DNA from: Saccostrea echinata
Taxonomy: Eukaryota
Reading direction: 5' to 3'
NCBI RefSeq assembly: GCF_033153115.1
Contig: NW_026889758.1
Coordinates: forward strand, 46,314,001-46,378,000
Length of the DNA: 64,000 nt
Each line of letters starts with the position of its first letter. The stretch's first letter is position 1. A model generated the notes under the pieces. That model had not been told where the DNA came from, did not search any database, and was given only the letters and a program-made list of their open reading frames with translations. Positions 1-47,374 of this stretch are shown one piece after another. The position numbers and the translations under genes are program-made.

Positions 1-572
1 GTACACATAAGCTTCTTGCCGATTTAATCCACGCCAAGCAAACATTTCGGGTGTTGACTACTGACAGATGCGGAGGAGAGGATGACATTTTTTTTTCTTT
101 TCCTACTGCGGATCCTGTAGAATTTTCGATTCATTTGAAAATACCCTGAGAACCATCACGAGAGATTCCAACAAATCTGATTAACAATGGATCTTAACAT
201 TTATGTAACACAGTTCTCCCATCTAGTCAGAAACTTCAAAATGAAAAATATGAAGATAAAACGAACAGTGTTTGAACATTTTTGTATATTTTTCTCTTTG
301 GCAGACAATAAGATGAAGATCCATAAAGCGTATATTATTTTATTTTAAGTATCAGTTTTCATTCGAACGAACGACTCGTCTACAGGTTTGTAGAGAGTCT
401 TTTTCAATAATGTTGACATTTATTCTTATTTGTATTCACTATGACCTTTAAAATTTCAGTCATCAGTTTGATGGATATTGAAAGTGGAAGTGGATGAAGG
501 AACGTTTTCTGCTTTATTATTTTATTCAAGATATTTTTAAAATATAAAATGAAAACAAAAAATTAAAAAAAT

Positions 573-812
573 AAACACTGGAAAGAAATAAACTAGATAT
601 AAAGATGTGGTAAATAAATAATAATAATTAAAAAAAAAAAACCCACGCATTTTGCGTGTGAAAATCTGATGTATTCATTTAAAAACATCACAAAATAAAC
701 ACTGGAAAGAAATAAACTAGATATAAAGATGTGGTAAATAAATAATAATAATAATAAAAAAAAACCCACGCATTTTGCGTGTGAAAATCTGATGTATTCA
801 TTTAAAAACATC
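573..812. repeat. Tandem duplication of a ~120 bp unit (mirrored at ~7368-7612)
   Basis: aaacactggaaagaaataaactag...tttaaaaacatca occurs twice in tandem. Confidence 0.9.
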
Positions 813-854
813 AAAAAATCAATGCATAAATAAGAAAAAAAAATGAATCCAAGC

Positions 855-3564
855 TTATTGACTTTGTATTGCCATTTCTTTTTTACAGTCTCTCGGTTTT
901 ACAACAATGTTTACGGCGAATGTCTCCACGTTATCTTCTTCTTTAGAAGTTGCTTTCGGGTCTTCATTCAGATATGTTTGAGTTTTAATTTCACTCATCA
1001 CTTTCTCTAAATGACACCATTTTGTGAGTCCTCTCTTTGCGACTTTTTCATTAACTTGTCGTCCTGAACATGACACGACAACCAGCAACGATTACCGTGC
1101 CAGTTACATCCGTGAAACTGGACATACGGCGTTTTTAGCGACGTCATAGCCCTCAACCGGAAAGCGTCCGATTTTCTTTTTCTTTTCCAAATATCAGCTG
1201 CTTGTGAGGAATGGTGTGCTGACCATTGTGGTTCAGCCAGTCCATCAAACAATAAGCAAGAGAGTAACGATCGCGTTCTGGTGGTTTCAATTTACTTTCT
1301 ACTCGACGAGACACGAAAGAACCCACAAGCATTTTTTCTCAAAGCACTGATACATTGATTGGCATCTAAATCAATTATTGTACTACAACTTCTTTTTTTA
1401 GAGGTTGGGATTTCATCTAAATGTTTAAACATGATTCTAAATCCCTTGAATTAGGTTTTGCTTTTATCGTATCCATATACGTCGTTGGCCTGAACAAAAG
1501 ATGCAAAACTAGCCCCTCCTTTCTACTGTCAAAAACTACCCCTCTTTTCTACTGTCAATCTGCATGCAAGACCGACTCCGAAATGCTGCATGTAAAGAAT
1601 CGAAAGAACGTCCTGTGCGGAAGATTCGACTTTAAAGGTTATTGTACCAAACCAGGAAATCGGGACAGTATGTCATATTTTTTTCCTCCCACACTCCGTA
1701 ACAAAGGGTGTATTTTTCGTAATATTTGGACATTTTAAAGAGGGAAAAATAACTTCATGTAGAGGAAGGTTGAAGTAGTTAAATTTTTCAATAGACACTA
1801 AACATTTAATAAAGGAAAAAGCTGTTACATTCCTGCCCGTCGAAAGGACACAAAAACCCCGAATAATTGAAGGTGGAACTCAGATACTGAGTAGTATTTT
1901 AAAAATGTAAACACAGGAGTACATACGCAGGCATAAGCATTATTTTATTTTTACGGTTAATAAGCCATGATATTTCAAACCTAGCGCGAGATCCTTGACG
2001 AGTTAGCTTTTGAATAAATTAATGTCATATGCGGCCTAACTGAAAGGAATGCGAATGATTTGTTTCGGTATTCTTTCGTTTTCAACTTTAATTTTCTGAG
2101 TATTTTCTCCCTTTATCAATCATTTTTTTAATCTTCGTCGTCATGTTCAAGGCATTCAGCCATGACTTTGTTCACATTGTCGACGAAAACAGGGTATCAA
2201 GGGCCTCGAACACGTAGATAATTTCTGCTTTTGCACTATTAGCTATCATTGTCATGTATTAGAGCATGATCCTGACCAAAGTGTTGTTAACTGGTTTTAT
2301 GGTATAACTTGGATCGGTGTATCCATCTATGTTAGAACAGACGTCAACAGTGATGGGAATATGAGTATCTGTTTGTTGCTTAGATCCAGAGCTTTATTGT
2401 TTATAGATCCTAGCATACTCTCAAAGTCAAACACTAAAAAACACTAGTATATTCTTTCGTTCTCGGGAACGTATACACCGAATTGATTTAATCTATCAAA
2501 TACAGACATTGGGGAATACTGAAACACACCTTCATATTTTTCCTTCCTTTTTTTTTTTTTTTTGGTCCGAACACACTGATGTTGTTTCATATTTTTTTTA
2601 TAATAATTGAAATGATGATAAATATGTTTTGCACTGGAATTTAATTTGGTATTAGAATTAAAATTCGAGATGTAAGACAGATGATTTCGAATAGATTTAA
2701 TTTAAACCTGCTTGAAAATTTACCTAGCGATTTGTAGACAGACTGTGTCGATTGTTCAGAGAAAAGACATTTACGTTAAAATTGAAGCATGTTTCATATC
2801 AAACGAATTTCTTTTGAGGTAATGCATCGTAAAAGTTTTAGTCTTTTTTAGTGAGCTTTTTAAAAAAAAAAAAATAAGGCACAATGTTGAATCAAATTAT
2901 TTACACGAGATTCTGAGTCACTGTGATAGTAGCTTTGAGGAAGCACTATACATCGTAACGCACAAGATTAAATATCTGTATATCCTCGACCTTTCTGGTC
3001 CTTTGTCAACTTAACAATGGATTTTGATCGACTAATGTTGTGAAGTAGAATTACGTCCGTATTTTCAAATACAAGATTAAGTTGATTTATGAAAGTGCGT
3101 GCATTGGTTACTAAATATGGCTTCCATTTTATGTAATTAGAATTATTAAGTCGTCGCATGTGCTACTGCAGGCAATTTAAATGTTCGCGCCGCGACACTT
3201 AAAAAGTCTCTGAAAAATCCTTGATTATGATGGGGTTTGAAATACCTATATTCTTTTGTTTCACTTTGTAACAATACGTGTTCAAATTCTGAATTTAATC
3301 TGAACGCTCTACTTTGACTATAATTCATGTTGTTTGCTGCTGGCATGCTTTCCCCAACAGAAAACAATATCTTTGGAGAAATTATACACACTACAAACAT
3401 TTCTCTCTTGGTGACGTCTTAAAATGATCGGGACAATAAGTTTTTTTTTTTATATCCTTCAATTTATCATCAACGCTTCCACCTTCTTCCAACGGAGGAA
3501 TCCCGTTCCCCCATGGTATGACTTGCAACTGTCCCCTCTCTCCTACTTGAAAATGTTCATTCAT
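855..3564 (-). pseudogene. Inverted duplicate of the pPolB pseudogene
   Basis: Mirror of 4616-7325. Confidence 0.8.
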
Positions 3565-3566
3565 CT

Positions 3567-3932
3567 GGGTGAAATTAAAATCAAATCAAGATTTTTTTTT
3601 TAATTTCAATAGATCTTTGTCAAGAATTATTTTTTTATTATTCTGAAAAGCAAAAATTAGTTGCTTCAGAATTGAAATGTAAAAATCAGACTTTAAAAGG
3701 AAAGAAATGTTTTTAAAAAGTGTTAGTTATAACATTTCTTTTTCATTAATTTTATTTTGTATCTTTTAGTTTTTTTTTTATAAGCAAATAAATATATTTA
3801 CAGTAAAAGATACAAAATATTACAATTCTGAAGCAACTAATATTTGCTTTTCAGGATAATAAAAAAATAATTCTTGACAAAGATCTATTGAAATTAAAAA
3901 AAAAAAATCTTGATTTGATTTTAATTTCACCC
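3567..3932. repeat. Nested hairpin in the palindrome spacer (arms 3567-3674 / 3823-3932)
   Basis: gggtgaaattaaaatcaaatcaag...gcttcagaattg versus caattctgaagc...cttgatttgattttaatttcaccc. A smaller inner IR (tattttgtatctttta / taaaagatacaaaata) is also present. Confidence 0.92.
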
Positions 3933-4226
3933 AATTCAGAGGCATTTTTCAAGATTGTGTTTGTGTGTGTTTTTAAAGAAAAATCAGTAGAGATCCGGTG
4001 GTATTCACAGTGGGGTATTTAATTAATTCTCTTTTAAATTAACCCCTCTATTTTTAAGCAAACAATTTTAGATAATTTTTTTTTTTTCATTATACAGAAC
4101 AATCATTTTCATTCGTGACGCAGTCACAGGTCAGCTGAAAATCAAAGTGAGTTAGACATTTGTTTTATTTTATTTTCAAATTTTATAAATGAGCTATGCT
4201 TCGTATATTTATTTTCCAACTTACCA

Positions 4227-4447
4227 TAGTGTAGATTCCTTATTTTACGCGAGTACTTAATATCGCGAAATGGTCCAAGGGCGTCAAATCGCGAGAACAA
4301 TAATTCGCGAATGGGTGATTTATCTAGAGAGTTTACATACATTAAAGCACCATAAAAATAAAAGTGGGTAATTTTATTTCGCGAGTGGTGCTTCTCGCGT
4401 AATTACGCGATAATTTATTCCTCGCGTATATTTAGGAATTTACAGTA
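4227..4447. mobile_element. MITE with TA-flanked TIRs
   Basis: tagtgtagattcct...tacgcgag versus ctcgcgta...aggaatttacagta, with internal cgcga repeats. Confidence 0.7.
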
Positions 4448-4607
4448 TTTAAAAATTTGAAGCTCTTTCTTCATACATTGAAATATTTAAGAAAGAAGTT
4501 TAACTTTTCATTTATTTTTTTGAATTCTATTTTTTTTTTCGATGATTCAAGAACCGATTAAACGTTGTACATGTAGAACTTGTAATAAGAGATTTGACTG
4601 GACTCTG

Positions 4608-7600
4608 TTCACCAGATGAATGAACATTTTCAAGTAGGAGAGAGGGGACAGTTGCAAGTCATACCATGGGGGAACGGGATTCCTTTGTTGGAAGAAGGTG
4701 GAAGCGTTGATGATAAATTGAAGGATATATATATATATAAAAAACTTATTGTCCCGATCATTTTAAGACGTCACCAAGAGGGAAATGTTTGTAGTGTGTA
4801 TAATTTCTCCAAAGATATTGTTTTCTGTTGGGGAAAGCATGCCAGCAGCAAACAACATGAATTATAGTCAAAGTAGAGCGTTCAGATTAAATTCAGAATT
4901 TGAACACGTATTGTTACAAAGTGAAACAAAAGAATATAGGTATTTCAAACCCCATCATAATCAAGGATTTTTCAGAGACTTTTTAAGTGTCGCGGCGCGA
5001 ACATAAATTGCCTGCAGTAGCACATGCGACGACTTAATAATTCTAATTACATAAAATGGAAGCCATATTTAGTAACCAATGCACGCACTTTCATAAATCA
5101 ACTTAATCTTGTATTTGAAAATACGGACGTAATTCTACTTCACAACATTAGTCGATCAAAATCCATTGTTAAGTTGACAAAGGACCAGAAAGGTCGAGGA
5201 TATACAGATATTTAATCTTGTGCGTTACGATGTATAGTGCTTCCTCAAAGCTACTATCACAGTGACTCAGAATCTCGTGTAAATAATTTGATTCAACATT
5301 GTGCCTTATTTTTTTTTTTAAAAAGCTCACCAAAAAAAACTAAAACTTTTACGATGCATTACCTCAAAAGAAATTCGTTTGATATGAAACATGCTTCAAT
5401 TTTAACGTAAATGTCTTTTCTCTGAACAATCGACACAGTCTGTCTACAAATCGCTAGGTAAATTTTCAAGCAGGTTTAAATTAAATCTATTCGAAATCAT
5501 CTGTCTTACATCTCGAATTTTAATTCTAATACCAAATTAAATTCCAGTGCAAACATATTTATCATCATTTCAATTATTATAAAAAAAATATGAAACAACA
5601 TCAGTGTGTTCGGACCAAAAAAAAAAAAAAAAGGAAGGAAAAATATGAAGGTGTGTTTCAGTATTCCCCAATGTCTGTATTTGATAGATTAAATCAATTC
5701 GGTGTATACGTTCCCGAGAACGAAAGAATATACTAGTGTTTTTTAGTGTTTGACTTTGAGAGTATGCTAGGATCTATAAACAATAAAGCTCTGGATCTAA
5801 GCAACAAACAGATACTCATATTCCCATCACTGTTGACGTCTGTTCTAACATAGATGGATACACCGATCCAAGTTATACCATAAAACCAGTTAACAACACT
5901 TTGGTCAGGATCATGCTCTAATACATGACAATGATAGCTAATAGTGCAAAAGCAGAAATTATCTACGTGTTCGAGGCCCTTGATACCCTGTTTTCGTCGA
6001 CAATGTGAACAAAGTCATGGCTGAATGCCTTGAACATGACGACGAAGATTAAAAAAATGATTGATAAAGGGAGAAAATACTCAGAAAATTAAAGTTGAAA
6101 ACGAAAGAATACCGAAACAAATCATTCGCATTCCTTTCAGTTAGGCCGCATATGACATTAATTTATTCAAAAGCTAACTCGTCAAGGATCTCGCGCTAGG
6201 TTTGAAATATCATGGCTTATTAACCGTAAAAATAAAATAATGCTTATGCCTGCGTATGTACTCCTGTGTTTACATTTTTAAAATACTACTCAGTATCTGA
6301 GTTCCACCTTCAATTATTCGGGGTTTTTGTGTCCTTTCGACGGGCAGGAATGTAACAGCTTTTTCCTTTATTAAATGTTTAGTGTCTATTGAAAAATTTA
6401 ACTACTTCAACCTTCCTCTACATGAAGTTATTTTTCCCTCTTTAAAATGTCCAAATATTACGAAAAATACACCCTTTGTTACGGAGTGTGGGAGGAAAAA
6501 AATATGACATACTGTCCCGATTTCCTGGTTTGGTACAATAACCTTTAAAGTCGAATCTTCCGCACAGGACGTTCTTTCGATTCTTTACATGCAGCATTTC
6601 GGAGTCGGTCTTGCATGCAGATTGACAGTAGAAAAGAGGGGTAGTTTTTGACAGTAGAAAGGAGGGGCTAGTTTTGCATCTTTTGTTCAGGCCAACGACG
6701 TATATGGATACGATAAAAGCAAAACCTAATTCAAGGGATTTAGAATCATGTTTAAACATTTAGATGAAATCCCAACCTCTAAAAAAAGAAGTTGTAGTAC
6801 AATAATTGATTTAGATGCCAATCAATGTATCAGTGCTTTGAGAAAAAATGCTTGTGGGTTCTTTCGTGTCTCGTCGAGTAGAAAGTAAATTGAAACCACC
6901 AGAACGCGATCGTTACTCTCTTGCTTATTGTTTGATGGACTGGCTGAACCACAATGGTCAGCACACCATTCCTCACAAGCAGCTGATATTTGGAAAAGAA
7001 AAAGAAAATCGGACGCTTTCCGGTTGAGGGCTATGACGTCGCTAAAAACGCCGTATGTCCAGTTTCACGGATGTAACTGGCACGGTAATCGTTGCTGGTT
7101 GTCGTGTCATGTTCAGGACGACAAGTTAATGAAAAAGTCGCAAAGAGAGGACTCACAAAATGGTGTCATTTAGAGAAAGTGATGAGTGAAATTAAAACTC
7201 AAACATATCTGAATGAAGACCCGAAAGCAACTTCTAAAGAAGAAGATAACGTGGAGACATTCGCCGTAAACATTGTTGTAAAACCGAGAGACTGTAAAAA
7301 AGAAATGGCAATACAAAGTCAATAAGCTTGGATTCATTTTTTTTTCTTATTTATGCATTGATTTTTTGATGTTTTTAAATGAATACATCAGATTTTCACA
7401 CGCAAAATGCGTGGGTTTTTTTTTATTATTATTATTATTTATTTACCACATCTTTATATCTAGTTTATTTCTTTCCAGTGTTTATTTTGTGATGTTTTTA
7501 AATGAATACATCAGATTTTCACACGCAAAATGCGTGGGTTTTTTTTTTTTTAATTATTATTATTTATTTACCACATCTTTATATCTAGTTTATTTCTTTC

Positions 7601-8180
7601 CAGTGTTTATTTTTTTAATTTTTTGTTTTCATTTTATATTTTAAAAATATCTTGAATAAAATAATAAAGCAGAAAACGTTCCTTCATCCACTTCCACTTT
7701 CAATATCCATCAAACTGATGACTGAAATTTTAAAGGTCATAGTGAATACAAATAAGAATAAATGTCAACATTATTGAAAAAGACTCTCTACAAACCTGTA
7801 GACGAGTCGTTCGTTCGAATGAAAACTGATACTTAAAATAAAATAATATACGCTTTATGGATCTTCATCTTATTGTCTGCCAAAGAGAAAAATATACAAA
7901 AATGTTCAAACACTGTTCGTTTTATCTTCATATTTTTCATTTTGAAGTTTCTGACTAGATGGGAGAACTGTGTTACATAAATGTTAAGATCCATTGTTAA
8001 TCAGATTTGTTGGAATCTCTCGTGATGGTTCTCAGGGTATTTTCAAATGAATCGAAAATTCTACAGGATCCGCAGTAGGAAAAGAAAAAAAAATGTCATC
8101 CTCTCCTCCGCATCTGTCAGTAGTCAACACCCGAAATGTTTGCTTGGCGTGGATTAAATCGGCAAGAAGCTTATGTGTAC
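4608..8180. repeat. Right arm of the inverted repeat
   Basis: Reverse complement of 1-3574. The few differences seen are mostly in the inner ~1 kb and in homopolymer lengths. Confidence 0.98.
4616..7325 (+). pseudogene. Polinton-type protein-primed DNA polymerase B, frameshifted and truncated
   Basis: Colinear motifs across frames: ETKEYRYFKPHHN; KWKPYLVTN...KSIVKLTKD...CALRC; VFDRLNQFGVYVPENERIY*CFLVFDFESML (Exo I-like); HIPITVDVCSNIDGY; TQYLSSTFNYSGFL; DFLVWYNNL; KIGRFPVEGYD...QFHGCNWHG. Confidence 0.8.
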
Positions 8181-8398
8181 ACACGATTTGAGCTCGACAA
8201 TTCATAGTGTTTCATGTAAAGTACAACCTGTGGAAATTTGTCATATATTATTACGCTAACCTCTTCGGTAATGGTACATCAGAAGTAGTATAATATCTGT
8301 GTGGGGCGTTCAAACAACATATTCTTTTGCTGTCCGAAAGCAAGAGAAAGACAAAAGAAGGATTATCCGGATTAGTGGTAAAGAGGGTTAGTTTGTGT

Positions 8399-9001
8399 TT
8401 ATTCACTACGATAGCGGCAAACGGGGCAGGATTGAATTCTTATGATTTGCATGTATTTCTTACATTGTAGACAGCAGGGATATTGATGACAGCGTTGACA
8501 AATCCAGGAACTTTTTGTATTGTCTTTCAAACAGATAAAACAATTATCAATTTGAATAGACCTTTTCTTGATGACCCATTTAGGGATCCATACACGTGAA
8601 CAGTGTTCGTAGAAGTTTCCAAGTTCAACATGACAACAGTCATCGTCTCTGTCTCCTGATCTGAGATACTGTTTCATGATTGTATGACCATTGCAATAGC
8701 GCTCCTGGTATATTTCTACCTCAAACATCCACAATGGTGCAAAAAATTTCCAAACTGTGCCCCTATTCCTCCTTTTTCTTAATCTCATATATCCCTTCGC
8801 TATTATTTCCCCTGAAGATTGAAGGTAATATCTCCAAATGATATATTGAATGATCGCCATATCATATTCGTACAGATCATGCATATCTCTCCTAAATGTT
8901 TCTTCTAGGACCCGATCTCTCAATTCGTATATAAAACACCAGTTTTTAAACCTCGAATCTTTATACGATTGGCTTACTAACTCTTTCCTGTCTCCATCCA
9001 T
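8399..9001 (-). CDS. 200-aa protein: CRESS-virus Rep (HUH endonuclease)-like N-terminal domain fused to a C-terminal RING-like zinc finger
   Basis: KNWCFIY (motif I-like); YIIW...SGEIIAKGYMRLRKRRNRGTVWKFF (motif II region, with the His of PHLQGY absent); KQYL...VELG; C-terminal CFIC-x10-CQRCH-x3-CCLQC-x11-CPVC. Confidence 0.65.
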   Translation of the reverse strand: MDGDRKELVSQSYKDSRFKNWCFIYELRDRVLEETFRRDMHDLYEYDMAIIQYIIWRYYLQSSGEIIAKGYMRLRKRRNRGTVWKFFAPLWMFEVEIYQERYCNGHTIMKQYLRSGDRDDDCCHVELGNFYEHCSRVWIPKWVIKKRSIQIDNCFICLKDNTKSSWICQRCHQYPCCLQCKKYMQIIRIQSCPVCRYRSE

Positions 9002-10499
9002 ATTTTCAAGGTGTCGGGGCCCTTACTCGTTTCAACTATACGAAAGAAAGTCCGTGGCGTGAACAAATGGGCAGATCCCGAATAGATCATTTCCGTGATC
9101 GACAAATGTGACGTCATACAAAGAAAATAAATATATTTGGATGCTTTTCTATCTTCGTCATCCTATGAAGAAAAGAGTTTTAAAAAAAAAACTACGTCTT
9201 TATTTGATAGCGCCTCTAATTTTGTAGAGAACAGATTCTTGTGCATATCATACGTGGAGCGATAATACAATTCTTCCCTTGTCTGCGAACCTTCCACGTC
9301 TTGAGATTTCAATACTAACTTCATTTGGTCGTACCAAGACTTGTACTTCTCATATACATGTAGAATATAAATAAAATATATTTTATTCTGCAGATAAATT
9401 TAATTGAAAGTAACAGAGAGTTTTTAAAAGTTATATCCCCCCCCCACACACACACACACAAACACACCATCCTCCCCTTTTCTTTATCATGTTTATATAA
9501 AGATGAGTCTTAAAAATTAACCGATATTAAAATCGTCGCATAATCCCATTGCAATTTATCTATCTATTTGAAAAGTTCAAACATTTGCCTCCTATTATTT
9601 TTATATGAAATTTCACACTTGGAAATGTACGTGCATCATATCGCCCATGCGATTTTGTGCGAATTTGATAACACAATTCATATCTCCTTGGTAAACAACG
9701 TTTCATCTTTCAAATATAGTTATAGACACTACCCAGTGAGTACCTTATATATCCTAAATGAATCATAATTAAGCTACACAACAATGAACATGAATAATCA
9801 TTTTATTTAATTGTTAATTACATATGTATATACATGATAACCTTTCCACGAGTTTCACGAACATGAAAATATATTTAAAGATTTTTGGATATTACACACA
9901 TTTTGATTCAGTTTTTCATCACCAGTTCCGGTGCTCTTATTGATTCGATAGGGGCAAAACAGCATGCTTAATTCATTCAAATAACCATCTATTAGATAGC
10001 AAGGTTTTGGTTCGTGATCGACATCGTTCGGTGACTGGGAGTATACGCAACGCAGCAAAGACGAGGAGGGAAGAGAGAGTGTTTTAATAAAGTTCTACTC
10101 CGCAATTTACATTTATGAAAATCCTTATTGCACTAACTATTTATTGATTTATACTTTCTTGTTTTTGCATTCATTAATTTATCATGTACATATATTAATG
10201 TCCAGATCTTTATATCTAGATGGTACTTTGTAGAAGACTTCATACTACAAATCTACTGACGTTTTAAAAAACTTTCAGATCAAATTTCGCCATTTGCTTG
10301 ATACACAACGCTTTGTCAACAATCGGCTTGTAATTTATTCGCATTCCGGTGGTGAGTTATGATGATGTAACAAAAATCATGGACTTGTGTTTGATACATA
10401 TATTTATTAGATTACATATACTTAATACGAATTTACACACAAAGTAAAAAAATTAGGTTTACAAAACATAAAAAGGTATGATTGTCACACACGATTTGT

Positions 10500-10826
10500 A
10501 CAGTTTTCACATAAAAAGAATATTTGACACATTTCGTAAGTAGTCGTTTCAACAGTTCTGGTAGTCTCCTTTTACCGTCAAGAAAATATTAGCACGGATG
10601 TGATAGTGGAGATCTTTCTTGTTCAAGGCTGCGTGGACCATATCAATTGCAAGCGTTAGACTTTTAAATAGCTGCAAGTTTAAACTGATGCCTTTCTTGG
10701 AAGGGAACTGACGATTTTCCGTTATTTCCATTCTCGTACGTCAACTCTACGTTCGCCATTGCTTAATATACACGCTAGAATGTATCACTCGTTTCTTAGA
10801 TGTAGACTCTTCGGTGTAGAAGACAT
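10500..10826 (-). pseudogene. PC4/Sub1-like ssDNA-binding protein, disrupted
   Basis: RRVDVREW / RQFPSKKGISLNLQLFKSL signature, split by a frameshift, with an upstream in-frame stop. Confidence 0.75.
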
Positions 10827-11255
10827 GTTTTGATAAGTTCTTAGCTTAATGAATGTACATATATTTAAATAGAAACTTAAAGATCTTAAATCGGAACACT
10901 TTCATTTCCAAATATTTTTCCGATTGGTTTATAACGATCAAGTGACTACATCTTATACATGTATAATAATGACCAAACGGAAGTTTGTCAAATGAAACGT
11001 GTAATAATTAAGTTTGATTTTAATCAAACAAGGATGTGAAATAATAAAATACAATCACACTTTACTCATGAACATTAATCCCTTCCGAATCATGTTTACT
11101 GCATTGATACACATCTTTTACATATTTTTAATCTAGCATGTATTTTAGATATACCTTAAATGGAAAACTCTTCTTAATTATATATAATATATTGGGGTCT
11201 GTTCTGACTTTTATTTATTTCATTTGTAATGGGACTGAATTCTATATAGTTCAAT

Positions 11256-11471
11256 TTAATATTGTTTTATCGTTAAACGTTTGAACGAGTATCTTAATCT
11301 ATATGAAACTAAATGTTTCTCAAGTATTGGTTCGAGGATTTGTGATAGATTATCGATCCGTCTCTGAATACGACATCTGTCCACAGCCCTTAACATCCAT
11401 TCTCCCTTACGATCCTCATAAGGAACGTTAATTATTGTATCATCACCTAAAAATCTAACAATCTTTTTCAT
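11256..11471 (-). CDS. 71-aa GADD34/PPP1R15 C-terminal-like (ICP34.5/DP71L-type) PP1-binding protein
   Basis: KKIVRF (RVxF-type) followed by RKGEW...AVDRCRIQRRI...ILEPIL, matching the RxGxW-RDRxRFxRRI pattern. Confidence 0.8.
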   Translation of the reverse strand: MKKIVRFLGDDTIINVPYEDRKGEWMLRAVDRCRIQRRIDNLSQILEPILEKHLVSYRLRYSFKRLTIKQY

Positions 11472-11929
11472 TGCATTATATTAATCCAGAGCTATTGGGT
11501 AGAATCTTTTGTGTTCATTCTTTTACAAAGAAAATATCAAATTTGCCTCCTCATATCAGAACATATAGAAAATATATTTTCCCCTTACTTTATTACCCTT
11601 CATACATACTCTTAGAATACATATTTATAAATTAATTCAATGAAACTTGTTCTTATAAACCCCGACGATTTAACATTGCACGACATCTGTCGAAATGGTC
11701 CCTAAAAATACCAGGTGTAAAAGTATTTTAATATGTAAATATTAATTCTATGTATTGATGAACGGAATAAATTGTTAAAAGGATTAAAACTCTCGTTTTA
11801 TTGATCTATTCATATCCGATTTTTGGCTTCCTTATCTTGTTATCCTGGTATAATACACTTGATCTATCATAGGATCCTCAAATTTGGTAGCTCCTCAAAT
11901 TAGCACGAAATGTCCCCCACTATACTACT

Positions 11930-12260
11930 GATACACATATAATTCTTCTTCAGTAGCGTCAGTTATGCTTTGTAAACCAATAATATTTCTGTCCGAGAGA
12001 AACTCTTCCAGGTCATTAATATATAAGGAAAATAAAAAAGGGGATAGATTTTCACCCTTGGCGAACACCAACATTACAGTTAAAATAATCTGTGATTGTG
12101 CCATTCAGATTTATCATAGATTTAATTCCTATATACATATTTTTGATGTAGTTAATACATTTTCCACTAACCCCACTCTTAAATAGCTTATGCCACAATC
12201 CAAATCTCCAAACCGTATCAAAAGCTTGTTTAAAATCAATGAAAGCGCAGAAAAGTTTTA
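11930..12260 (-). mobile_element. Non-LTR (RTE-X/L2-like) reverse transcriptase fragment
   Basis: CAFIDFKQAFDTVWRFGLWHKL...VGVRQG*NLSPFLFSLYINDL. Confidence 0.85.
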
Positions 12261-12261
12261 C

Positions 12262-12500
12262 CAATTCTACATAGGTGAAACGGGGACAACATTGAGAGCC
12301 AGAATCCGGGTGCATAAACAACACATTCAAGTCCCCGAGTACCGCAAGATGAAACTCAGCGAACATATAGATATATGCGGACACGGACAATTTAAAGTAT
12401 TTCCTTTTTAAAAACTTTTTAGAGACAATATAATTGAAAGAAGAGAAAAAGAAAAACATTTCATTCAAAAATTTAAACCCAGTCTTAACAGTTTGATTTA
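12262..12500 (+). mobile_element. Penelope-like GIY-YIG endonuclease C-terminal fragment
   Basis: FYIGETGTTLRARIRVHKQHI...LSEHIDIC...REEKEKHFIQKFKPSLN. Confidence 0.8.
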
Positions 12501-13005: not shown

Positions 13006-13174
13006 GTACCACGATGGTATACCTCCATTGCTAGTATAGAGCTGTGCAATAGTGATGGGATATAGTTTTAAAATTATATTCCTTTTTACCTCTTGTATTT
13101 ACTTGATATTTTTCTTTTAATCAAATAAACCAAAAGCATTGATATAAAGTCATTTTGACGTTCCCTAGACTTAC

Positions 13175-13307
13175 CAGGGTGGGACAGCCCCACTACTGAT
13201 TTTGGTATATTGTTTAGTGTCCACTCGCAATCTGGATCTCCCAATTCTTGCCCATTGGTCTTACCATCGCCATCCGAATCCTTTTGACAAAGTACAGAAG
13301 TCCATGT
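13175..13307 (-). CDS. Temptin-domain gene A, exon 3
   Basis: ttcctcaag| TWTSVLCQKDSDGDGKTNGQELGDPDCEW...LSHPG |gtaagt. Downstream exons are not seen in the window. Confidence 0.9.
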
Positions 13308-13856
13308 CTTGAGGAAAAAAAGAGAGAAAAAAATGTCACCCCCTTTTTCTGATTGAGGAAAAATACATTTAAATTCAAAGAGAAACTGCCATTTTCCAGC
13401 TAAGCTGAATAGAGATTTCAAGCTTTATATCACTTAATGCGCCGAAGAAGTTGTACGAATGCCATAAAATGTCCGCAGAAGATTTATCGGTGTTTCTCTG
13501 TTCATCTACGTCTCAATATTATCATCAGATTTCATAGTCATATATTTTAATTAACGGAATTAGAAAAAAGTCACAGATCAAAACAGCTGATCGATATAAT
13601 TAATGATATTAATAGATATATGTACTGTGCATGTATTTTCATTTCTACTTTCCTTTTTCTTTTCTTTTTTTAAGATAAACTAAGAGGGTGTCATTTGCCC
13701 AAATGCTGATTACATATACAGTCCCATCAACGCTGCTTTGCTGAACAGTTTAGCGCTAATGTAGATTTCAAGATGAAATGTAAGCGAAGGCATATATTCC
13801 GTTAATATTTGATATATATGTATATTTTTGTAGGAGTTATCATATTAAACGTTTAC

Positions 13857-14046
13857 ATTTCCTTCTCTGTTGAAGTCCAGACCAAATGGATTTCGTTTGC
13901 CTCCCCCACCCTGTGCCTCGTGTCCAACACCTCCCCATGTTGTTGTCGGATCACATGGATGAGGAACATTTCGACCATTTGGAATTTTGTCGCGAAACGA
14001 ACCATAACCATCAGCAAAATTGACAACCAGCAAAACGAGAAAGGAA
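13857..14046 (-). CDS. Temptin-domain gene A, exon 2
   Basis: tttttgcag| SFLVLLVVNFADGYGSFRDKIPNGRNVPHPC...WGGVGH...GGGKRNPFGLDF...GN |gtaaac. Confidence 0.88.
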
Positions 14047-15220
14047 CTGCAAAAAGAAACGTGTTCAAGATGAAAATAGCAAAGTATTAGGTACACTGTA
14101 TTATCTTTGTCAAGATTAAAAAAAAAAATCTTCAAAAATTTCAATTTACTGCATGTACCTGGATGCGATCAGAATTTATATCTGCCCTCTTCATGGAAGA
14201 GTAATCTATAATAGGAAGGAATGCAATATAATGGGGAAATTCTTTGGGGGTCGCAATATAGTCTTCCGAAGATTTGCTGTATTGTAAATGACCTGGGGGA
14301 ATGTTTGCTTTATTGTAAGTCTTCCCCGGGGAATTTCTGCAAGGGGCAACCTTTACTCTATAATAGCGCATGGGATGGAATTAATGCGTAAGCATTGTGA
14401 GAATACCTAAATGGAAATGAATTCCTGCAGAGAGAGAATATTAAAATGGATTTCATTTGAAACATACACTTGTAAGCGTGGTCATTCACCACACCTATAT
14501 TCATTGTAGGGATGTCACATGGGTCAAACGCAGTCTATCAGTGATAAATAGTCATTAAGCATTTGCTTACTAATATCCTTGTGTGTTGCCTAATATAATA
14601 ATTATTTGACAATTTTCCCGAAAAGATCATTGAGAAATGTCTCAACATACATCAGCTGTATTTTCCTTTAGCTTGAATAAAAAATAAATGGTGCAAAATC
14701 GGTGATAATATCATCTTAAAATGCTGTAGTTTTAAAGAAAAAATTGTAAAGATTTTGATAATGTTTTGAAATATCTTTTAGATCAAATATTTTGAAGTTA
14801 AAAGGGTTTAAAGTTATGAATGAAAAATAGTGAAACAAAATTTTAATATATCGCCTCATAAAACGAAAAAAATCGATTTAGAACATATATTTTTTTTAAA
14901 CAGATTTAAATTTAAATTTAAAACACTCTTTTCTTTGCTAGTAATTTATTTTCAGATAAAATATGGTTTAAACTAAGTACACCTGTTGGAAACGATCATT
15001 TCAAGATTTTTAATTAGGATTTATTAAAATAATTCACAACATAGGAAGGTGTATACGATAATTGACAGATTCAACAAAAAAATAATCTTGTGCTTCAAAA
15101 TGCTAATGATATGAAATATGAAATATGAAATGAAATAGCAGGAAATCGAGTGGTCACCGTGGTTTCCTAGAATCTTTTGACTCAGAACCATTCATCGTAT
15201 GTATTTAGTGACAAACTTAC

Positions 15221-40017: not shown

Positions 40018-40674
40018 ATGGCAGGGGTGGATCCCAATTCTGTGAAAATACAGATATGTCTCCTTGGTCATTCCTTCATTCGTAGACTTTCAGAGTTTAT
40101 GGACTCTAATCCGGATTTTAAAGATCTTAATTTAGATGCAGAAAATTATGAAATAACTGTGTGTGCTAAAGGGGGACTGCGTACAGGTGGACTTCAGTGT
40201 ATGTTAAAAGGAATAACCGGGCATCCCGACATTCATTTCATACAAATAGGTGGGAATGACATTGGTTATTTATCGAATGAGAAGATCGTTATAAACATTC
40301 TCTCCTTTTCTGAGTACCTAACTCAGGGATTGGATTCAAAAAGAGTTATTATTGGCCAGCTTCTAAGAAGAGACCCATCTGTGAGCGTTGCAGGGTACAA
40401 CGATTCTGTTGTTGAAATTAACAGCCTCCTCACACAAAAGACACAGGCACATGAAAGAATATTTTTCTGGAGGCACAGAGGGTTTTGGCAAAACTTGTCA
40501 CACTTGGCAAGGGACGGTGTACACCTCGACAACCCCCCTCTGAAGCATTTGAAGCACGGGGACCCCCCTTCGCCCATGCATAAGTATTGGAGAAGTGTCA
40601 GGAATGCAGTAATTGTGCATTCCTGTCAATTAAGGCCAGTATTAGGTTTTGGTTACAACAACGAAAAACATTAA
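40018..40674 (+). CDS. SGNH/GDSL hydrolase-like ORF of the element
   Basis: LGHSF (block I), AKGG (II), QIGGND (III), DGVH (V). Confidence 0.88.
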   Translation: MAGVDPNSVKIQICLLGHSFIRRLSEFMDSNPDFKDLNLDAENYEITVCAKGGLRTGGLQCMLKGITGHPDIHFIQIGGNDIGYLSNEKIVINILSFSEYLTQGLDSKRVIIGQLLRRDPSVSVAGYNDSVVEINSLLTQKTQAHERIFFWRHRGFWQNLSHLARDGVHLDNPPLKHLKHGDPPSPMHKYWRSVRNAVIVHSCQLRPVLGFGYNNEKH

Positions 40675-40884
40675 TTGTTTGTATGTAAACATATTTGCAT
40701 ATTTGGAGCAGCTTAATTATTCTGTAATCATATGTCCTTTTGTATTTGCTGCAAACTTTTTATAAATACAGGCTAATTGGTGCAACAGGGCCAATTTTGG
40801 TAATATATATTTGTTTTACATATATGTACCTGTTACCACACCATGTGTTCTGCTTATCATGATTTGTCCTTCAATGTTGTTCAG

Positions 40885-41060
40885 TAAAGCATTGATGTAT
40901 AACTGTTCAGTATAACAGTTTTCACTCACTTGATGTTCAGTATAGCATCACCCTATAAATGCTTAGTATAGCATTATAGCATTACCCTTTATATGCTCAG
41001 TATAGCATCACCCTATAAATGCTCAGTATAGCATTATATAACTGTTTAGTATAACAGTGT
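40885..41060 (+). repeat. Short tandem repeats inside the element
   Basis: Repeated cagtatagcatcaccctataaatgct and aactgttcagtataacag. Confidence 0.7.
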
Positions 41061-41585
41061 GGTTCATTGGTGCCTTTATGGCATCACTAGTTGTTCTGTG
41101 TATATGTATAGAGATGCCCAGTATGACATCTGCATGAAGCTGTTCAGTACAACAGTCTTGCCTTTTTTAAGGGGGAGGGGTTGTATAAATGACATTACTT
41201 CGAGTCCTTTGTATACAAATGTAGATGTTTAATGGAACATCACCACCTGTCTGGTCAATAGAACAGTAAACATAAAGTAGGTGTTAAGTACACCTTCTCG
41301 TTAGGGTGGTTCATTATATCGTCTACAGTTCTGTTGTCCATATCTGCAGCCCTTGAAAATTTTTGATTGTTAACTAACATGCTAATCTGCCTATTAGTCA
41401 GGCCTTATGAATTATTTAAGATTGTAAACCAAATGGTTTATGCTTGGTGGGATTTAAACATTATTTATTACATGGGCTGTCAGACGAAATCCAAAAATTT
41501 ATACATTTTACACATTAGCTACAAGTTCATGTAGTTCTTTGTGTGATTATGGGTTCTAAATTCTTTCTAATTTAACACAGGGACA

Positions 41586-42683
41586 ATGCCAAGACAAAAA
41601 AGAGGCCTATCTCAGCCAAAAACAGCACAGCCTTCCAAACGTAAGAGGAGTGCAACAAAAAGCACACCCTGCACTGTGGTAAATGAACAACAAACTGAAA
41701 CCACCTCACCTGCAGCTATGAACACCAATGCCGTTCAGGTTGACTATGTAAAATTGGCAGCGGAGATACTCAAACAACAAAACGCTGCATCTCAACAGAC
41801 TGCACTCATTCGAGATCCATCAGACACCTCAGCTCCATCCCCTTCAGCTCCGTCTACTTTGGCTCTGTCCACTTCAGCTCCGTCCACTTTGGCTCCAGCC
41901 ACTTCGGATCAACCCCCACCGGCTACATCCTCAGCGTCACAGGCTGCGGATCTATTGTCTTTAATTGACAATGTTTTTAGTAGTAAAACAGGTGAGTCAG
42001 TAAGGGAAAAAAATCTACCCACCATCAACATTGCAGACGGCATCCCTTTAGGGGCGGGGATAAGTCAAAAAACAAAACAAAAAATATGGGACAATGAATT
42101 CATTGACCTCATGTCCCTATTACCTAACCAATTTGACGACCCTGTATCAGTTACCATTGGGGCGGGTTCCATCAACTTCCAACATGGCAACAAACCAAAA
42201 TCCCCCTTAACTATTTATCAGTGGACTGATGCCTTCCTCATATTCACCTGCATCTTTCTACAAAAACATCCCTCAGAAGCCCCCAATCTCTTAAAATACT
42301 GCAGTTTAGTTCGAGAGATTTACACTATGTCAACCGATGGGGCTTGGCGTATTTATGATGAAAATTTCCGTCGTTTAAGGCAATCAACAAATCTTCCTTG
42401 GCAAAAACCAGTGGAAGAACTGCGCATCAAAGCGCTTTCAAAATCAAAAGGTCAATATACAAATGATACTTTTCGCAAATCCAGACAGTTCAACAAAGGG
42501 GGGAAAGTCTGCTTTGCTTTCAACAGGGGGGACAAGTGTAAATCCTTCCCTTGCCAATACCCACACATCTGCCAACTATGCAAAGGATCACACGCAAAGT
42601 TCAATTGCAAGGAACTTGCCTACACCAAGCAATTCAAATCTAGCACCACATCTGCCGACACCAGTAAACCTAAAAAACCTTAA
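41586..42683 (+). CDS. Gag-like ORF1
   Basis: KIWDNEFIDL, WTDAFLIF, WRIYDENFRR, C-terminal CFAFN..C..C..H.C..C...H zinc fingers. Confidence 0.9.
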   Translation: MPRQKRGLSQPKTAQPSKRKRSATKSTPCTVVNEQQTETTSPAAMNTNAVQVDYVKLAAEILKQQNAASQQTALIRDPSDTSAPSPSAPSTLALSTSAPSTLAPATSDQPPPATSSASQAADLLSLIDNVFSSKTGESVREKNLPTINIADGIPLGAGISQKTKQKIWDNEFIDLMSLLPNQFDDPVSVTIGAGSINFQHGNKPKSPLTIYQWTDAFLIFTCIFLQKHPSEAPNLLKYCSLVREIYTMSTDGAWRIYDENFRRLRQSTNLPWQKPVEELRIKALSKSKGQYTNDTFRKSRQFNKGGKVCFAFNRGDKCKSFPCQYPHICQLCKGSHAKFNCKELAYTKQFKSSTTSADTSKPKKP

Positions 42684-44220
42684 TTCCTTTCTCTCAGGCT
42701 ATGACACACTAGCCCGCTCAAAATTAGTACAGGGTTTTTCAGAGGGTTTTCACTTAGGTTGTCAAGGTTTCCCTTCTAGTAATATCTCTAAAAATCACAA
42801 GAGCTGTGCCCAGCACCCAGAAATCATAGACTCCTTCATTCAAGAAGGCTTACAAAAAAGTAGGCTAGCTGGTCCGTTTGAATTGCCACCTTTTCCAGTA
42901 TTTAAATCCTCCCCACTGGGGGTTGTCCCAAAATCTGAACCTGGAAAATTTCGCATTATCCATGATTTATCTTATCCAAAAACAAATTCAGTTAATATGT
43001 TCATTCCTCAAGAAAACTCAAACGTAAGCTACGATTCTATTGATAAAGTTGTTGAACTTGTTCAAAAGTTTGGCACAAGAAGTTTGATGGCCAAGTCAGA
43101 CATTCAGGATGCATTTAGAATTGTGCCCATTCACCCTGCAGACTACCATCTCCTGGGTTTTTCTTGGAATGGCAAATTTTACTATGACCGTTGTCTCCCT
43201 ATGGGGGCCAGTAGTTCCTGCCAAATTTTTGAGTCCTTCAGCACTGCTTTAGAGTGGATAATGTATGCAAAATTTGGTGCTCTGGGTATGTCTCACATTT
43301 TAGATGACTTTCTCTTTGTGGGCCCACCTGATAAGTTAAATTGTCGAGATGACTTAACCAATTTCCTGTTTCTCTGTGCAAGGTTGAATGTTCCAATCAA
43401 ACTGGACAAAACAGTTCCTCCTACAACTTGTCTTACAATCTATGGTATAGAGGTTGATACAGTTTCCATGGAATGCCGTTTACCACAAGTCAAAGTAGAA
43501 AAGATTAGAAACAAACTGCATGAATTTCAGGGCAAATCTAAGACCTCCTTAAGAGAAATTCAGTCTCTTATAGGCCTCCTTAATTTTGCTTGCTCAGTTG
43601 TGGTACCAGGCCGAGCCTTTCTACGCCGCTTAATTAATCTTACCTGTAAAATTTCAAATCCCTTTCACCCCATCAACCTTAACAGTGAAGCTCAAGCTGA
43701 TATCAATATGTGGAAATTTTTTATAGATAAATTTAATGGAAAATCCATCTTTCTTTCACAATATTGGGTCACATCAGAAGACATGACACTTTTTACTGAT
43801 GCAGCAGGGTCTATTGGTTTTGCTGGGGTGTTGGGAAACAAGTGGTTTGCTCAAAAATGGCCAAAGGATCTAGAAGACTACCAAATAGCTATTAAAGAAA
43901 TATTCCCTATTGTACTTGCAATAGAGGTATGGGCCCCATTGTTAGGAAACAAAAAAATCTTATTCATGTCTGATAATCAAGCAGTGGTGGACATTATAAA
44001 CAAAACATCATCAAAAGACGCCACTCTCATGAAACTAGTCAGGCGTCTTGTTTTCTGCTGCTTGACAAATAACATATTGTTTAGAGCTAAACATATCCCT
44101 GGCAAACTTAATACTTTAGCCGACAAACTGTCTCGTTTTCAATTTCAGGAGGCTGCCAGCATTGCCCCAAATCTGTCTTCAATACAAACATTCATTCCGT
44201 CTCACTTACTAGAGATCTGA
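42463..44220 (+). CDS. Reverse transcriptase / RNase H
   Basis: SPLGVVPK, RIIHDLS, KSDIQDAFR, LPMG, HILDDFL, TDAAG, IKE, SDNQAVV, HIPGKLNTLADKLSR. Confidence 0.95.
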   Translation: MILFANPDSSTKGGKSALLSTGGTSVNPSLANTHTSANYAKDHTQSSIARNLPTPSNSNLAPHLPTPVNLKNLNSFLSGYDTLARSKLVQGFSEGFHLGCQGFPSSNISKNHKSCAQHPEIIDSFIQEGLQKSRLAGPFELPPFPVFKSSPLGVVPKSEPGKFRIIHDLSYPKTNSVNMFIPQENSNVSYDSIDKVVELVQKFGTRSLMAKSDIQDAFRIVPIHPADYHLLGFSWNGKFYYDRCLPMGASSSCQIFESFSTALEWIMYAKFGALGMSHILDDFLFVGPPDKLNCRDDLTNFLFLCARLNVPIKLDKTVPPTTCLTIYGIEVDTVSMECRLPQVKVEKIRNKLHEFQGKSKTSLREIQSLIGLLNFACSVVVPGRAFLRRLINLTCKISNPFHPINLNSEAQADINMWKFFIDKFNGKSIFLSQYWVTSEDMTLFTDAAGSIGFAGVLGNKWFAQKWPKDLEDYQIAIKEIFPIVLAIEVWAPLLGNKKILFMSDNQAVVDIINKTSSKDATLMKLVRRLVFCCLTNNILFRAKHIPGKLNTLADKLSRFQFQEAASIAPNLSSIQTFIPSHLLEI

Positions 44221-45125
44221 GTGCATCCTCCCAACATCTTCTTCAGGCTGCACTTTCAACATCTTCAAGAGTGGCATACCACAGAAGCTGGCAGCTCTTC
44301 CTCCAGTGGAAACCTTCATTCACCTCATTACCGGTGTCAGAGGTAGATTTGTGCAATTTTATTGGATATCTCTTCTCTGAGAATTATGCCCCATCCTCAG
44401 TATCTTCACATGTCTCAGCAATAGGCTACCTCCACAAAATCTGCAGCTTACCAGATCCCACTGAAAAATTCCTACCCAAAAAACTCCTGAAAGGATGCCA
44501 TGCACTAGTGCCACAGCAGGACACAAGACTTCCAATTACAACGGACATCCTGCGTAAAATTATTCAGGCTATTAACATTGTTGAACCACTCTTAGGTAAT
44601 AGGTTACTACTTAAAGCCTTCTATCTTCTGGCCTTTCAAGCTTTCTTAAGAATAGGTGAACTCGCCACTCGTTCCGCTAACTCTAATCATGTATTACAGC
44701 GTTCTGATGTTAGCTTCAGAGTCTCAAATGGCATCTTATCAGGGGTTACCATTGTTATGAAACATTTCAAGAATAACACTGAGCAGAAACCAGTTACTTT
44801 GCACCTTTCAAACAGCAGTTCCATTACCTTCTGCCCTGTTAAGGCATTGTATGATTACACTACTCACTTTGCTCACACTTCAGGGCCACTTTTTCAATTC
44901 ATGAGTGGGGAACCAGTCACACACCATTTTATAAGCCAGCAGCTATGCAAGTTAGTCTCATTCATTGGCCTTGATCCAAAACTGTACAAAGGACACAGTT
45001 TTCGAATTGGTGCAGCAACTCATGCAGCATCTCTGGGTTTCTCTGAAAACTATATTCAGAAGCTGGGTAGATGGCGCTCGAATGCAGTACGCAGGTACAT
45101 CCGCATATCTTCATTTGATATATAA
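44149..45125 (+). CDS. Tyrosine recombinase (frame open from 44112, no N-terminal ATG; start placed at predicted splice acceptor)
   Basis: FLRIGE, KHFK, CPV, HSFRIGAAT, GRWRSNAVRRY. Confidence 0.92.
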
Positions 45126-46758: not shown

Positions 46759-47374
46759 CTATAAACACAAAAAGATGGTGAATAAGATTGATGCCATAAG
46801 TGTTGCTGATGTTGCTGTGCTTGCTTCTGATGTTGGTTTGTAATCTTCCTTACAAGTGTCCAAACAATTAGCTTGGCAATTCTCCCGGGCAATCTCTGTG
46901 TTACATGAATCGAGAGCTGTAAACATAGAAAAACGTGTTTGCTGCCTCTTTTCCACAGCTAACTCCCGATAATAAGCCCCCACACTGCCATTTACACATG
47001 GATTTTTCATTGCTTCTGTTAAAAAGGCACGGCATTCTGGGATACATCCTGAGAGCATTTTACAGTTATCGAAGACGGCCTTTATAAAAGCGGCAGTGGC
47101 AGGATGATTATCATCGATAAACGCCGTAGTATTACAACCATTTACAATTATAACTTTATCTCCATAAGCATTTAGAGAGTTCTCGCTTATGTCTTGCCAC
47201 TGTGTACAGGTGGTCAAAGTGAGGTTTTCCATAGGGTGGTAGGTGAGAAATCCCAAACACATTTCGTCATTAGTTGCGTCACCTTTGTACACAGTTCTGT
47301 TCATGTTCATAGAGGAAAATACACACGTCGTGATTATTTCGTCCCCGGGTCTGAACTCGATAGGTGTTGTAAAT
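46759..47374 (-). CDS. Temptin + Cu type II monooxygenase (MOXD1/DBH-like) gene B, last exon
   Basis: ttgtag| FTTPIEFRPGDEIITTCVFSS...GDATNDEMCLGFLTYHP; Cys-rich region; hydrophobic C-terminus. Confidence 0.92.

Follow-up and report, generated by a model that had tools for sequence, protein, structure and literature searches.

The window analysed here is a stretch of 64,000 nucleotides of the Saccostrea echinata genome (assembly GCF_033153115.1, contig NW_026889758.1, positions 46,314,001 to 46,378,000 of the forward strand), and it raises the question of what a 200-aa open reading frame on its reverse strand encodes and whose gene it is. A sequence-only reading had described a probably nuclease-dead CRESS Rep domain fused to a RING finger, intact within decayed surroundings. 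The ORF at 8399-9001 (-) is intronless and is the only one of at least 110 aa in positions 1-12000 of the window. Its product carries the motifs NWCF (residues 20-23), YIIW..SGE...GY (53-71) and VELG (125-128) and eight cysteines at residues 154-195, confirming the ORF and the motifs listed in that reading. The identical protein is encoded in the opposite arm of a palindrome, upstream of the window (G000:C9:46313180-46313782, +), where the genome search found it 9.2 kb upstream on the opposite strand. The ORF was also touched by depth-2 contigs in runs that were only guessed to be RNA, which speaks neither for nor against expression. The features of the gene are as follows:

8399-9001 (-): pseudo-Rep and RING ORF, 200 aa, from the ORF call, the genome search and the comparison of copies
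8612-8953 (-): CRESS Rep endonuclease-like domain, aa 17-130, from profiles, model and Foldseek
8789-8845 (-): region of motif II (aa 53-71), aligned to viral Reps with no gap, with Y59, I67 and K69 in the E, H and Q columns
8414-8542 (-): C8 RING, with C154, C157, C168, C171, C177, C180, C192 and C195, then R196
9109-9116 (no strand): TGACGTCA, a CRE-like putative site 115 nt before the ATG in 9/9 copies, followed by a TATA-like TATAGT at -39 before the ORF in 6/9 copies; the compared copies are 93-97% alike, so the conservation of such promoter-like signals is weak evidence
8398-8403 (-): AATAAA overlapping the stop codon of the ORF

The single 200-aa protein matched no Pfam family at E<=1, gave only weak RING matches (E about 9) among PDB sequences, and found no match among 8 candidates in the protein database, where all three of our searches covered lengths up to 350 aa. 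Evidence of homology therefore comes from profiles and folds, and these identify the N-terminal ~115 aa as a CRESS Rep endonuclease domain. When 177,635 PDB sequences were searched with a profile built from the 5 intact fused copies, two matches came out at E<=10, both of them the Rep nuclease domain of the nanovirus FBNYV (E 0.56). The one match of that profile among viral contigs was a full-length CRESS Rep that has HLQG, YCTK and a Walker A motif. An AlphaFold model built from the alignment of fused copies only was of low confidence (mean pLDDT 40; 50-60 over residues 21-80), and its order of strands and helices fits, at that confidence, the Rep HUH fold of a five-stranded sheet with three helices. 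With this low-confidence model, Foldseek placed CRESS Reps at all of PDB ranks 1-10 (E 4e-3 to 2e-2) and gave 44 matches at E<=1e-3 in BFVD (best E 8e-5), every named one among the matches listed being derived from a CRESS Rep. In VIA-align, generic ferredoxin-like folds ranked level with Reps (Z about 6), and shape alone does not separate Reps from them. In a profile of 68 viral Reps, built with the seed clade left out, the query scored 12.7 bits, above all 1000 shuffles (maximum 10.3); the paralogue at C40 exceeded 1000/1000 shuffles and that at C6 exceeded 999. Since the viral Reps had been seeded from a match to the motif I pattern, the fused-copy profile and Foldseek serve as the independent tests. 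Pfam PF02407 missed the query and matched one paralogue copy at 20.7 bits. Profiles, Foldseek, BFVD and the shuffle test together bore out the proposed CRESS-Rep origin of the N-terminal domain, and the Foldseek comparison suggested as a check came out in its favour, with the reservation that the model has a pLDDT of 40.

The catalytic residues of this domain have been replaced. The metal-site Glu is the third ligand of CRESS Reps, and the E, H and Q columns are invariant in 68/68 viral Reps, where the invariance of H and Q is partly imposed by the search pattern. In an ungapped alignment the query has Y59, I67 and K69 in these columns, and E, H and Q are replaced in 5/5 intact fused copies. 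The replacement of the motif II His had been noticed from the sequence; the loss of Glu and Gln comes in addition. The loss of the metal site makes it a strong inference that the Rep domain is nuclease-dead. Motif I is also changed (FIYEL in the query as against FTxNN of Reps). In the motif III helix the query has Y112 without K at +3, while the paralogues have YxxK four residues earlier, so that no motif III helix Tyr is common to both subfamilies. The segment after motif II aligns poorly to viral Reps and the net charge of the domain is only +2; a basic patch, RLRKRRNR, directly follows motif II. The oligomerisation and SF3 helicase domains are absent, as the ORF stops after the RING and has no Walker A anywhere. 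The gene sits in a giant palindrome, and circovirus-like Rep nickases are replication genes in some virophages according to the available part of a preprint (bioRxiv 10.64898/2026.10.13.758929), which could point to an enzyme that still nicks, resolving the palindrome or initiating replication of the rolling-circle or hairpin kind. The replaced residues in 5/5 fused copies and the want of a common motif III Tyr stand against such an enzyme, as do elements with broken copies that still spread and the finding of no CRESS-type nonamer stem-loop in the window arm or the C40 element, against 6/6 positive CRESS controls. We regard an active nickase as very improbable.

An eight-cysteine RING takes up the C-terminal 43 aa; its spacing, C-x2-C-x10-C-x2-C-x5-C-x2-C-x11-C-x2-C, is that of a C8 variant. 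All eight cysteines, and the Arg next to the last of them, are unchanged in 16/16 aligned rows, including Maverick ORFs with unrelated N-termini, and the RING placed at the C-terminus by the earlier reading held up on these ligands. I156, P193 and R196 lie, we presume, at the positions of E2 contacts and of the 'linchpin'. The best match of the RING profile in the PDB was the MDM2 RING (E 5e-4), and zf-C3HC4_3 was found at E<=0.1 in 10/16 RING members, the query itself giving none. The RING model had a pLDDT of 74, and its VIA matches were mostly RING/U-box (top Z 4.0). The proposed Foldseek comparison of this domain gave a mixed answer: RING/U-box folds were among the matches, but these were weak (E about 1). 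More than 100 further RING matches are scattered in the genome, all those inspected lying within Mavericks, and the combination 'PxW + C8 RING' occurs behind at least 4 unrelated N-termini. The RING is a cassette common to Maverick ORFs with different N-termini. In the L034-L035 and L058 Mavericks we observed up to three C8-RING ORFs with different N-termini along with a BIR-RING (IAP) gene and an extra ORF, without a Pfam match, which we take to be macro-like.

A cassette shared in this way would also suit a Rep fold that serves as a protein-binding substrate receptor without binding DNA and is directed against a host protein of immunity or apoptosis. The several N-termini behind one RING, neighbouring accessory genes of host-modulating types (PP1c-binding, IAP) and the divergence of the DNA-facing Rep motifs are in line with this reading. 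It sits less well with the basic patch, with the motif II strand pair retained ungapped and with the PC4-like ssDNA-binding genes that adjoin. We consider it unlikely, though the least unlikely of the alternatives.

The surroundings of the ORF showed to what the gene belongs. Positions 1-8180 of the window are a near-perfect inverted repeat, and this is part of an element of 15,901 bp (G000:C9:46310029-46325929) that carries the Rep-RING gene in both arms. The two arms have a similarity of 99.5% across 5,966 bp, falling to 96.9% in the outermost 1,375 bp, and enclose a spacer of 1,034 bp. The left end reads AGTAGA and the right end ACTACT, with a 6-bp duplication, GATACA, at both flanks. The parts of the element in the window, and its flank, are:

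1-3573 (no strand): left arm, inner part (mirror image), continuing 3.97 kb upstream of the window
3574-4607 (no strand): spacer at the palindrome centre, 1034 nt
4608-11929 (no strand): right arm of the palindromic Maverick
6889-7325 (+): probable pPolB remnant with the motif VQFHGCNWHG, mirrored at 855-1291 (-)
10558-10713 (-): broken PC4-like (ssDNA-binding) gene
11256-11471 (-): intact 71-aa ORF with a PP1c-binding region (PF10488, E 0.0017, below the cut-off)
11920-11935 (+): right terminus ..ACTACT and target duplication GATACA
11936-12459 (-): remnant of a LINE reverse-transcriptase gene that the insertion cut in two; the other piece (..LYADDT..) is past the left end

From the end inward, each arm holds the PP1c-binding ORF, the broken PC4-like gene, the Rep-RING ORF and the probable scrap of pPolB, for which tblastn matched Maverick pPolB (E 3e-4) in a single copy, C63, and Pfam gave no match. 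The element contains no intact pPolB, integrase, capsid, ATPase or protease. As the element splits a LINE reverse-transcriptase gene, the insertion is real. We had considered the palindrome as a possible assembly artefact and rejected this, given the same 6 bp at both ends and flanks that are the halves of one LINE gene; different duplications at 4 loci also counter it. The element is a non-autonomous palindromic Maverick (Polinton), a virus-like transposon, and we infer that a helper mobilises it. No autonomous element with the internal sequence of this family was found in 7 regions, which took in 6 out of the remaining terminal matches, and an element at C33 that bears core genes has an end match of only 75% to the family. 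Of the description of an intact ORF within decayed surroundings, the ORF was real but the surroundings are a Maverick element and not random decay.

Some further observations concern the element and the rest of the window. The 71-aa PP1c-binding ORF, presumably GADD34/ICP34.5/DP71L-like, is intact in several copies, and two different versions of it occur in the family; in another Maverick family (L059:3739-4242) a short PP1c-binding ORF is overlapped by a second ORF in a different frame. The outer 1.4 kb of the arms (10563-11929 in the window, against its mirror) has a 227-bp indel at the border with the inner part, and this divergence together with the indel reads as recombination or gene conversion between copies. 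Positions 4400-4450, at the palindrome centre, are a piece of a high-copy short repeat (deep cover, loose ends; match at L146/L147). Elsewhere in the window, 40018-45125 (+) is a DIRS-like retroelement with a GDSL-like ORF, a gag-like ORF, RT/RNase H and a tyrosine recombinase fragment. At 46759-47310 (-) there is an exon similar to the C-terminal end of a copper type II monooxygenase (PF03712, E 2.5e-4), and the region around 13086-14168 may contain more pieces of such a gene.

The C9 element, with C11, C30, C32, C34, C40 and C63, makes up a family of 16-18 kb, almost wholly palindromic, non-autonomous Mavericks whose spacers vary between almost nothing and 3 kb; in two copies the sequence stops at a contig break. 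We examined nine loci of the family, four with both ends and each of these with its own duplication, three with a single end, of which two are truncated where the contig stops, and two with none. The arms within a locus are 99.3-99.7% alike and the loci about 90-95%. As arms are far more alike within a locus than between loci, while spacers vary and copies end at contig breaks, the pattern suggests that these elements arose by snap-back and that their arms are homogenised at each copy.

The Rep-RING gene is intact in 3/14 arm copies, that is at 2/9 loci, and is broken at seven. One stop is common to C30, C32 and C34 and one frameshift to these and C1, and at C32, C34 and C63 the lesions of the two arms are identical. 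Such shared lesions mean that broken versions were copied onward and that the gene was not needed in cis. "Intact" in the sequence-only reading thus describes the ORF of the window but holds at just 2/9 loci, and the 71-aa ORF is intact as well. Among close copies, 25 of 74 distinct variants were synonymous as against 25% expected from the flanking substitution spectrum, which is not significant (p=0.06). These results bear on a domesticated host restriction factor, another proposal made from the sequence. An ORF that is intact in both arms here and at a second locus, and that has signals resembling a promoter and a poly(A) site, might be expected of such a gene, but this ORF lies within a mobile element that has target duplications at dispersed sites, 7/9 loci are broken with one stop common to three and one frameshift to four, and selection within the family is not significant. 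With the gene intact at only 2/9 loci and lesions common to loci, we rejected the host gene as a candidate and hold it to be very improbable; the gene is Maverick cargo, of which broken versions were copied.

The fusion also has paralogues. A second fused subfamily, 31-36% identical and with the same two-domain layout, was represented by 3 intact copies in the same genome, so that the fused homologues asked for by the earlier reading do exist. One paralogue lies just inside the TIR of a full-length 19.7-kb Maverick at C40 (227-bp TIRs, duplication GCTTTG), the long ORFs of which encode pPolB (1,401 aa), integrase, capsid, a protease-like protein and ATPase; another is in a 10.7-kb derivative with the duplication CCTACC. 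PC4-like ssDNA-binding genes adjoin the Rep-RING gene in both subfamilies. With codon models, omega was 0.22 for the set of 5 intact fused copies (Rep part 0.19, RING 0.23) and 0.26 within the second subfamily alone. Omega=1 was rejected in 6/6 fits (2dlnL 18-78), and the proposed dN/dS check came out at about 0.2 for both domains, a deep value that synonymous saturation may have lowered. By these codon models both domains show the signature of purifying selection across Maverick lineages, and the fusion has been kept up as a gene of Mavericks. The copy in the window is probably decaying, in a helper-dependent derivative that does not need it in cis. Beyond this genome, the fused alignment found no fused homologue among 917 candidates in the protein database (lengths <=350 aa) and no fused gene in 359 stretches of metagenome contigs, and the ESM Atlas gave no match for the query or for the paralogue domain.

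Rep-like domains also occur unfused in Mavericks of this genome. In a third Maverick family, two Rep domains stand side by side without a fusion partner (PF02407, E 8e-5 and 4e-3); these tandem, probably dead CRESS Reps lie at L059:6999-8388 and at about 60 further loci of an abundant family. PF02407 had 19 matches in the genome as against 0/14 controls, and 59 of 150 scored matches were full-length copies of one domain at >=90% identity. The stand-alone pseudo-Reps keep the Glu, have Arg or another residue in place of Gln and mostly Phe in the Tyr column, and gave omega values of 0.45 (20/28 sequences) and 0.54 (16/16). A mixed-alignment search (lengths <=350 aa) found 4 proteins on ENA contigs, all stand-alone pseudo-Reps and none fused, and the stand-alone profile had 0/600 matches to viral contigs. 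BLASTP of the query against a stand-alone pseudo-Rep found nothing (E 0.7), and the profile pair was weak (6.5%, E 0.006). In a tree with 40 of the 56 non-redundant viral Reps, fused and stand-alone domains came out on the same side (93/79), a result that carries a warning about long branches; with such branches the tree neither shows nor rejects a single Rep capture and fits one or two. At L059 the stand-alone pseudo-Reps lie about 0.8 kb from a RING ORF, which offers a possible route to fusion. Inverted pairs of stand-alone pseudo-Reps about 0.3 kb apart were seen at L090 and G000:C3:13654589-13655725 and are probably palindromic derivatives of that Maverick family.

A further proposal, which corresponds to the inter-virus interference suggested in the sequence-only reading, is that of an anti-CRESS weapon: the dead Rep would detect co-infecting CRESS viruses by their origin or Rep, and the RING would tag their Rep for degradation. 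The Rep-like domain does derive from CRESS Reps, Mavericks and CRESS viruses would share the nucleus, and the stand-alone pseudo-Reps are under selection as well (omega 0.45 and 0.54). A dominant-negative defence has been put forward, as a proposal only, for avipoxvirus apvReps in the part of PMC10193959 available. Against this, the oligomerisation and helicase parts are missing and the Rep-like domain sits on very long branches, which makes specific recognition of a Rep or origin doubtful. We give this proposal a low probability, and an equally low one to its extension, in which animal Mavericks would have made the replication initiator of a rival ssDNA virus into a decoy E3 that seeks out CRESS origins or Reps and destroys the replication machinery of the rival, and palindromic satellites would have spread doubled copies via the host germline.

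The explanation that we prefer, tentatively and at somewhat less than even chances, is that the ORF is a Maverick accessory gene in which a dead CRESS Rep domain and a RING make a ubiquitin ligase steered by the Rep domain. During co-infection, a Maverick would have taken over the nuclease domain of a CRESS virus Rep; the captured Rep would have lost its helicase and catalysis and been joined to the RING cassette of the element. The dead domain may still bind single-stranded or hairpin DNA, for example the element's own displaced strands, and would bring the RING and a host E2 to the element DNA, where the ligase could ubiquitinate host proteins that sense, repair or silence it. Of the possible designs we favour, by analogy, that of p28: a targeting domain with a C-terminal RING, and hence a predicted E3 ligase. 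The Maverick ends, the 6-bp duplications at the 4/9 loci with both ends and the split LINE speak for this explanation, as do the homologies of both domains, the paralogue in the 19.7-kb element, the omega values, the basic patch after motif II and the PC4-like ssDNA-binding neighbours; the changed motif I, the poor alignment past motif II, the net charge of +2, the low-confidence full-length model and the weak fold matches of the RING speak against it, together with the possible saturation behind the deep omega, the non-significant selection within the window's own family and the negative searches for a fused homologue outside this genome.

Several known systems can be set beside this gene. 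Like circo-, nano- and redondo-like CRESS Reps, it has the endonuclease fold, the motif I/II scaffold and the terminal E-x-G; unlike them, it is devoid of the metal ligands, a shared catalytic Tyr, the oligomerisation/SF3 helicase domain, an origin stem-loop and a capsid gene. Mavericks have ends of the (AGT)2//(ACT)2 type, a 6-bp duplication and accessory genes, according to the relevant sections of PMC8097293 and PMC6431247. The end motif and 6-bp duplication of the element in the window agree with the account in PMC8097293, and it has accessory genes, but it differs from a typical Maverick so described in having no core gene left intact and in being palindromic over nearly its whole length, with arms of 7-8.8 kb. 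A Rep-like domain in a polinton-like virus also has a parallel in the Gulliviroviridae virophages, in which, from the portion available, a circovirus Rep-like nickase is counted as a replication gene (bioRxiv 10.64898/2026.10.13.758929), whereas here the domain is likely a dead accessory with pPolB alongside. HUH genes occur in some polinton-like viruses, as far as the available text of another preprint goes (bioRxiv 10.64898/2026.06.19.733378).

Other parallels come from large DNA viruses. As described in the accessible part of PMC10193959 (Kinsella et al. 2023), the avipoxvirus apvReps are captured CRESS Reps, often of the endonuclease only, with HUH/HUQ inactivated and under purifying selection. 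They resemble the present gene in that a CRESS Rep endonuclease domain was captured by a dsDNA virus-type carrier, is dead and was selected; the present gene differs in being carried by an integrating Maverick and in having a RING joined to its dead domain, and that part of the paper names no apvRep RING fusion. HHV-6 U94 and adenovirus ORFs are likewise captured ssDNA-virus Reps with dead nuclease motifs (parts of PMC10193959 and PMC11071296), but those are parvovirus-derived, U94 keeps its helicase and the same parts mention no RING. Poxvirus p28/N1R combines a KilA-N DNA-binding domain with a C-terminal RING and has E3 activity (PMC8381512, in part). It too is a small protein with an N-terminal DNA-binding-type domain, a C-terminal RING and stand-alone versions of the N-domain, whereas its N-domain is unrelated and it belongs to a cytoplasmic virus with demonstrated E3 activity, which in our case is predicted from sequence.

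In the main texts of the literature, supplements apart, we met no Rep-RING fusion and no dead Rep in an animal Maverick, and two adintovirus papers and the Replitron paper mention no such gene in the sections available. Annotated adintovirus genomes (PMC8502044 and PMC11071296, in part) may already label genes of the Rep-RING type. The finding records a flow of genes from CRESS viruses to animal Mavericks, which implies co-infection, and brings out a modular RING family among Maverick accessory genes. The captured dead Reps of poxviruses and herpesviruses have no known function, and the ubiquitination substrates of a RING fusion would reveal what its Rep domain binds. Rep-RING is a new domain architecture among Maverick accessory genes and a variant of the known theme of the captured, dead Rep.
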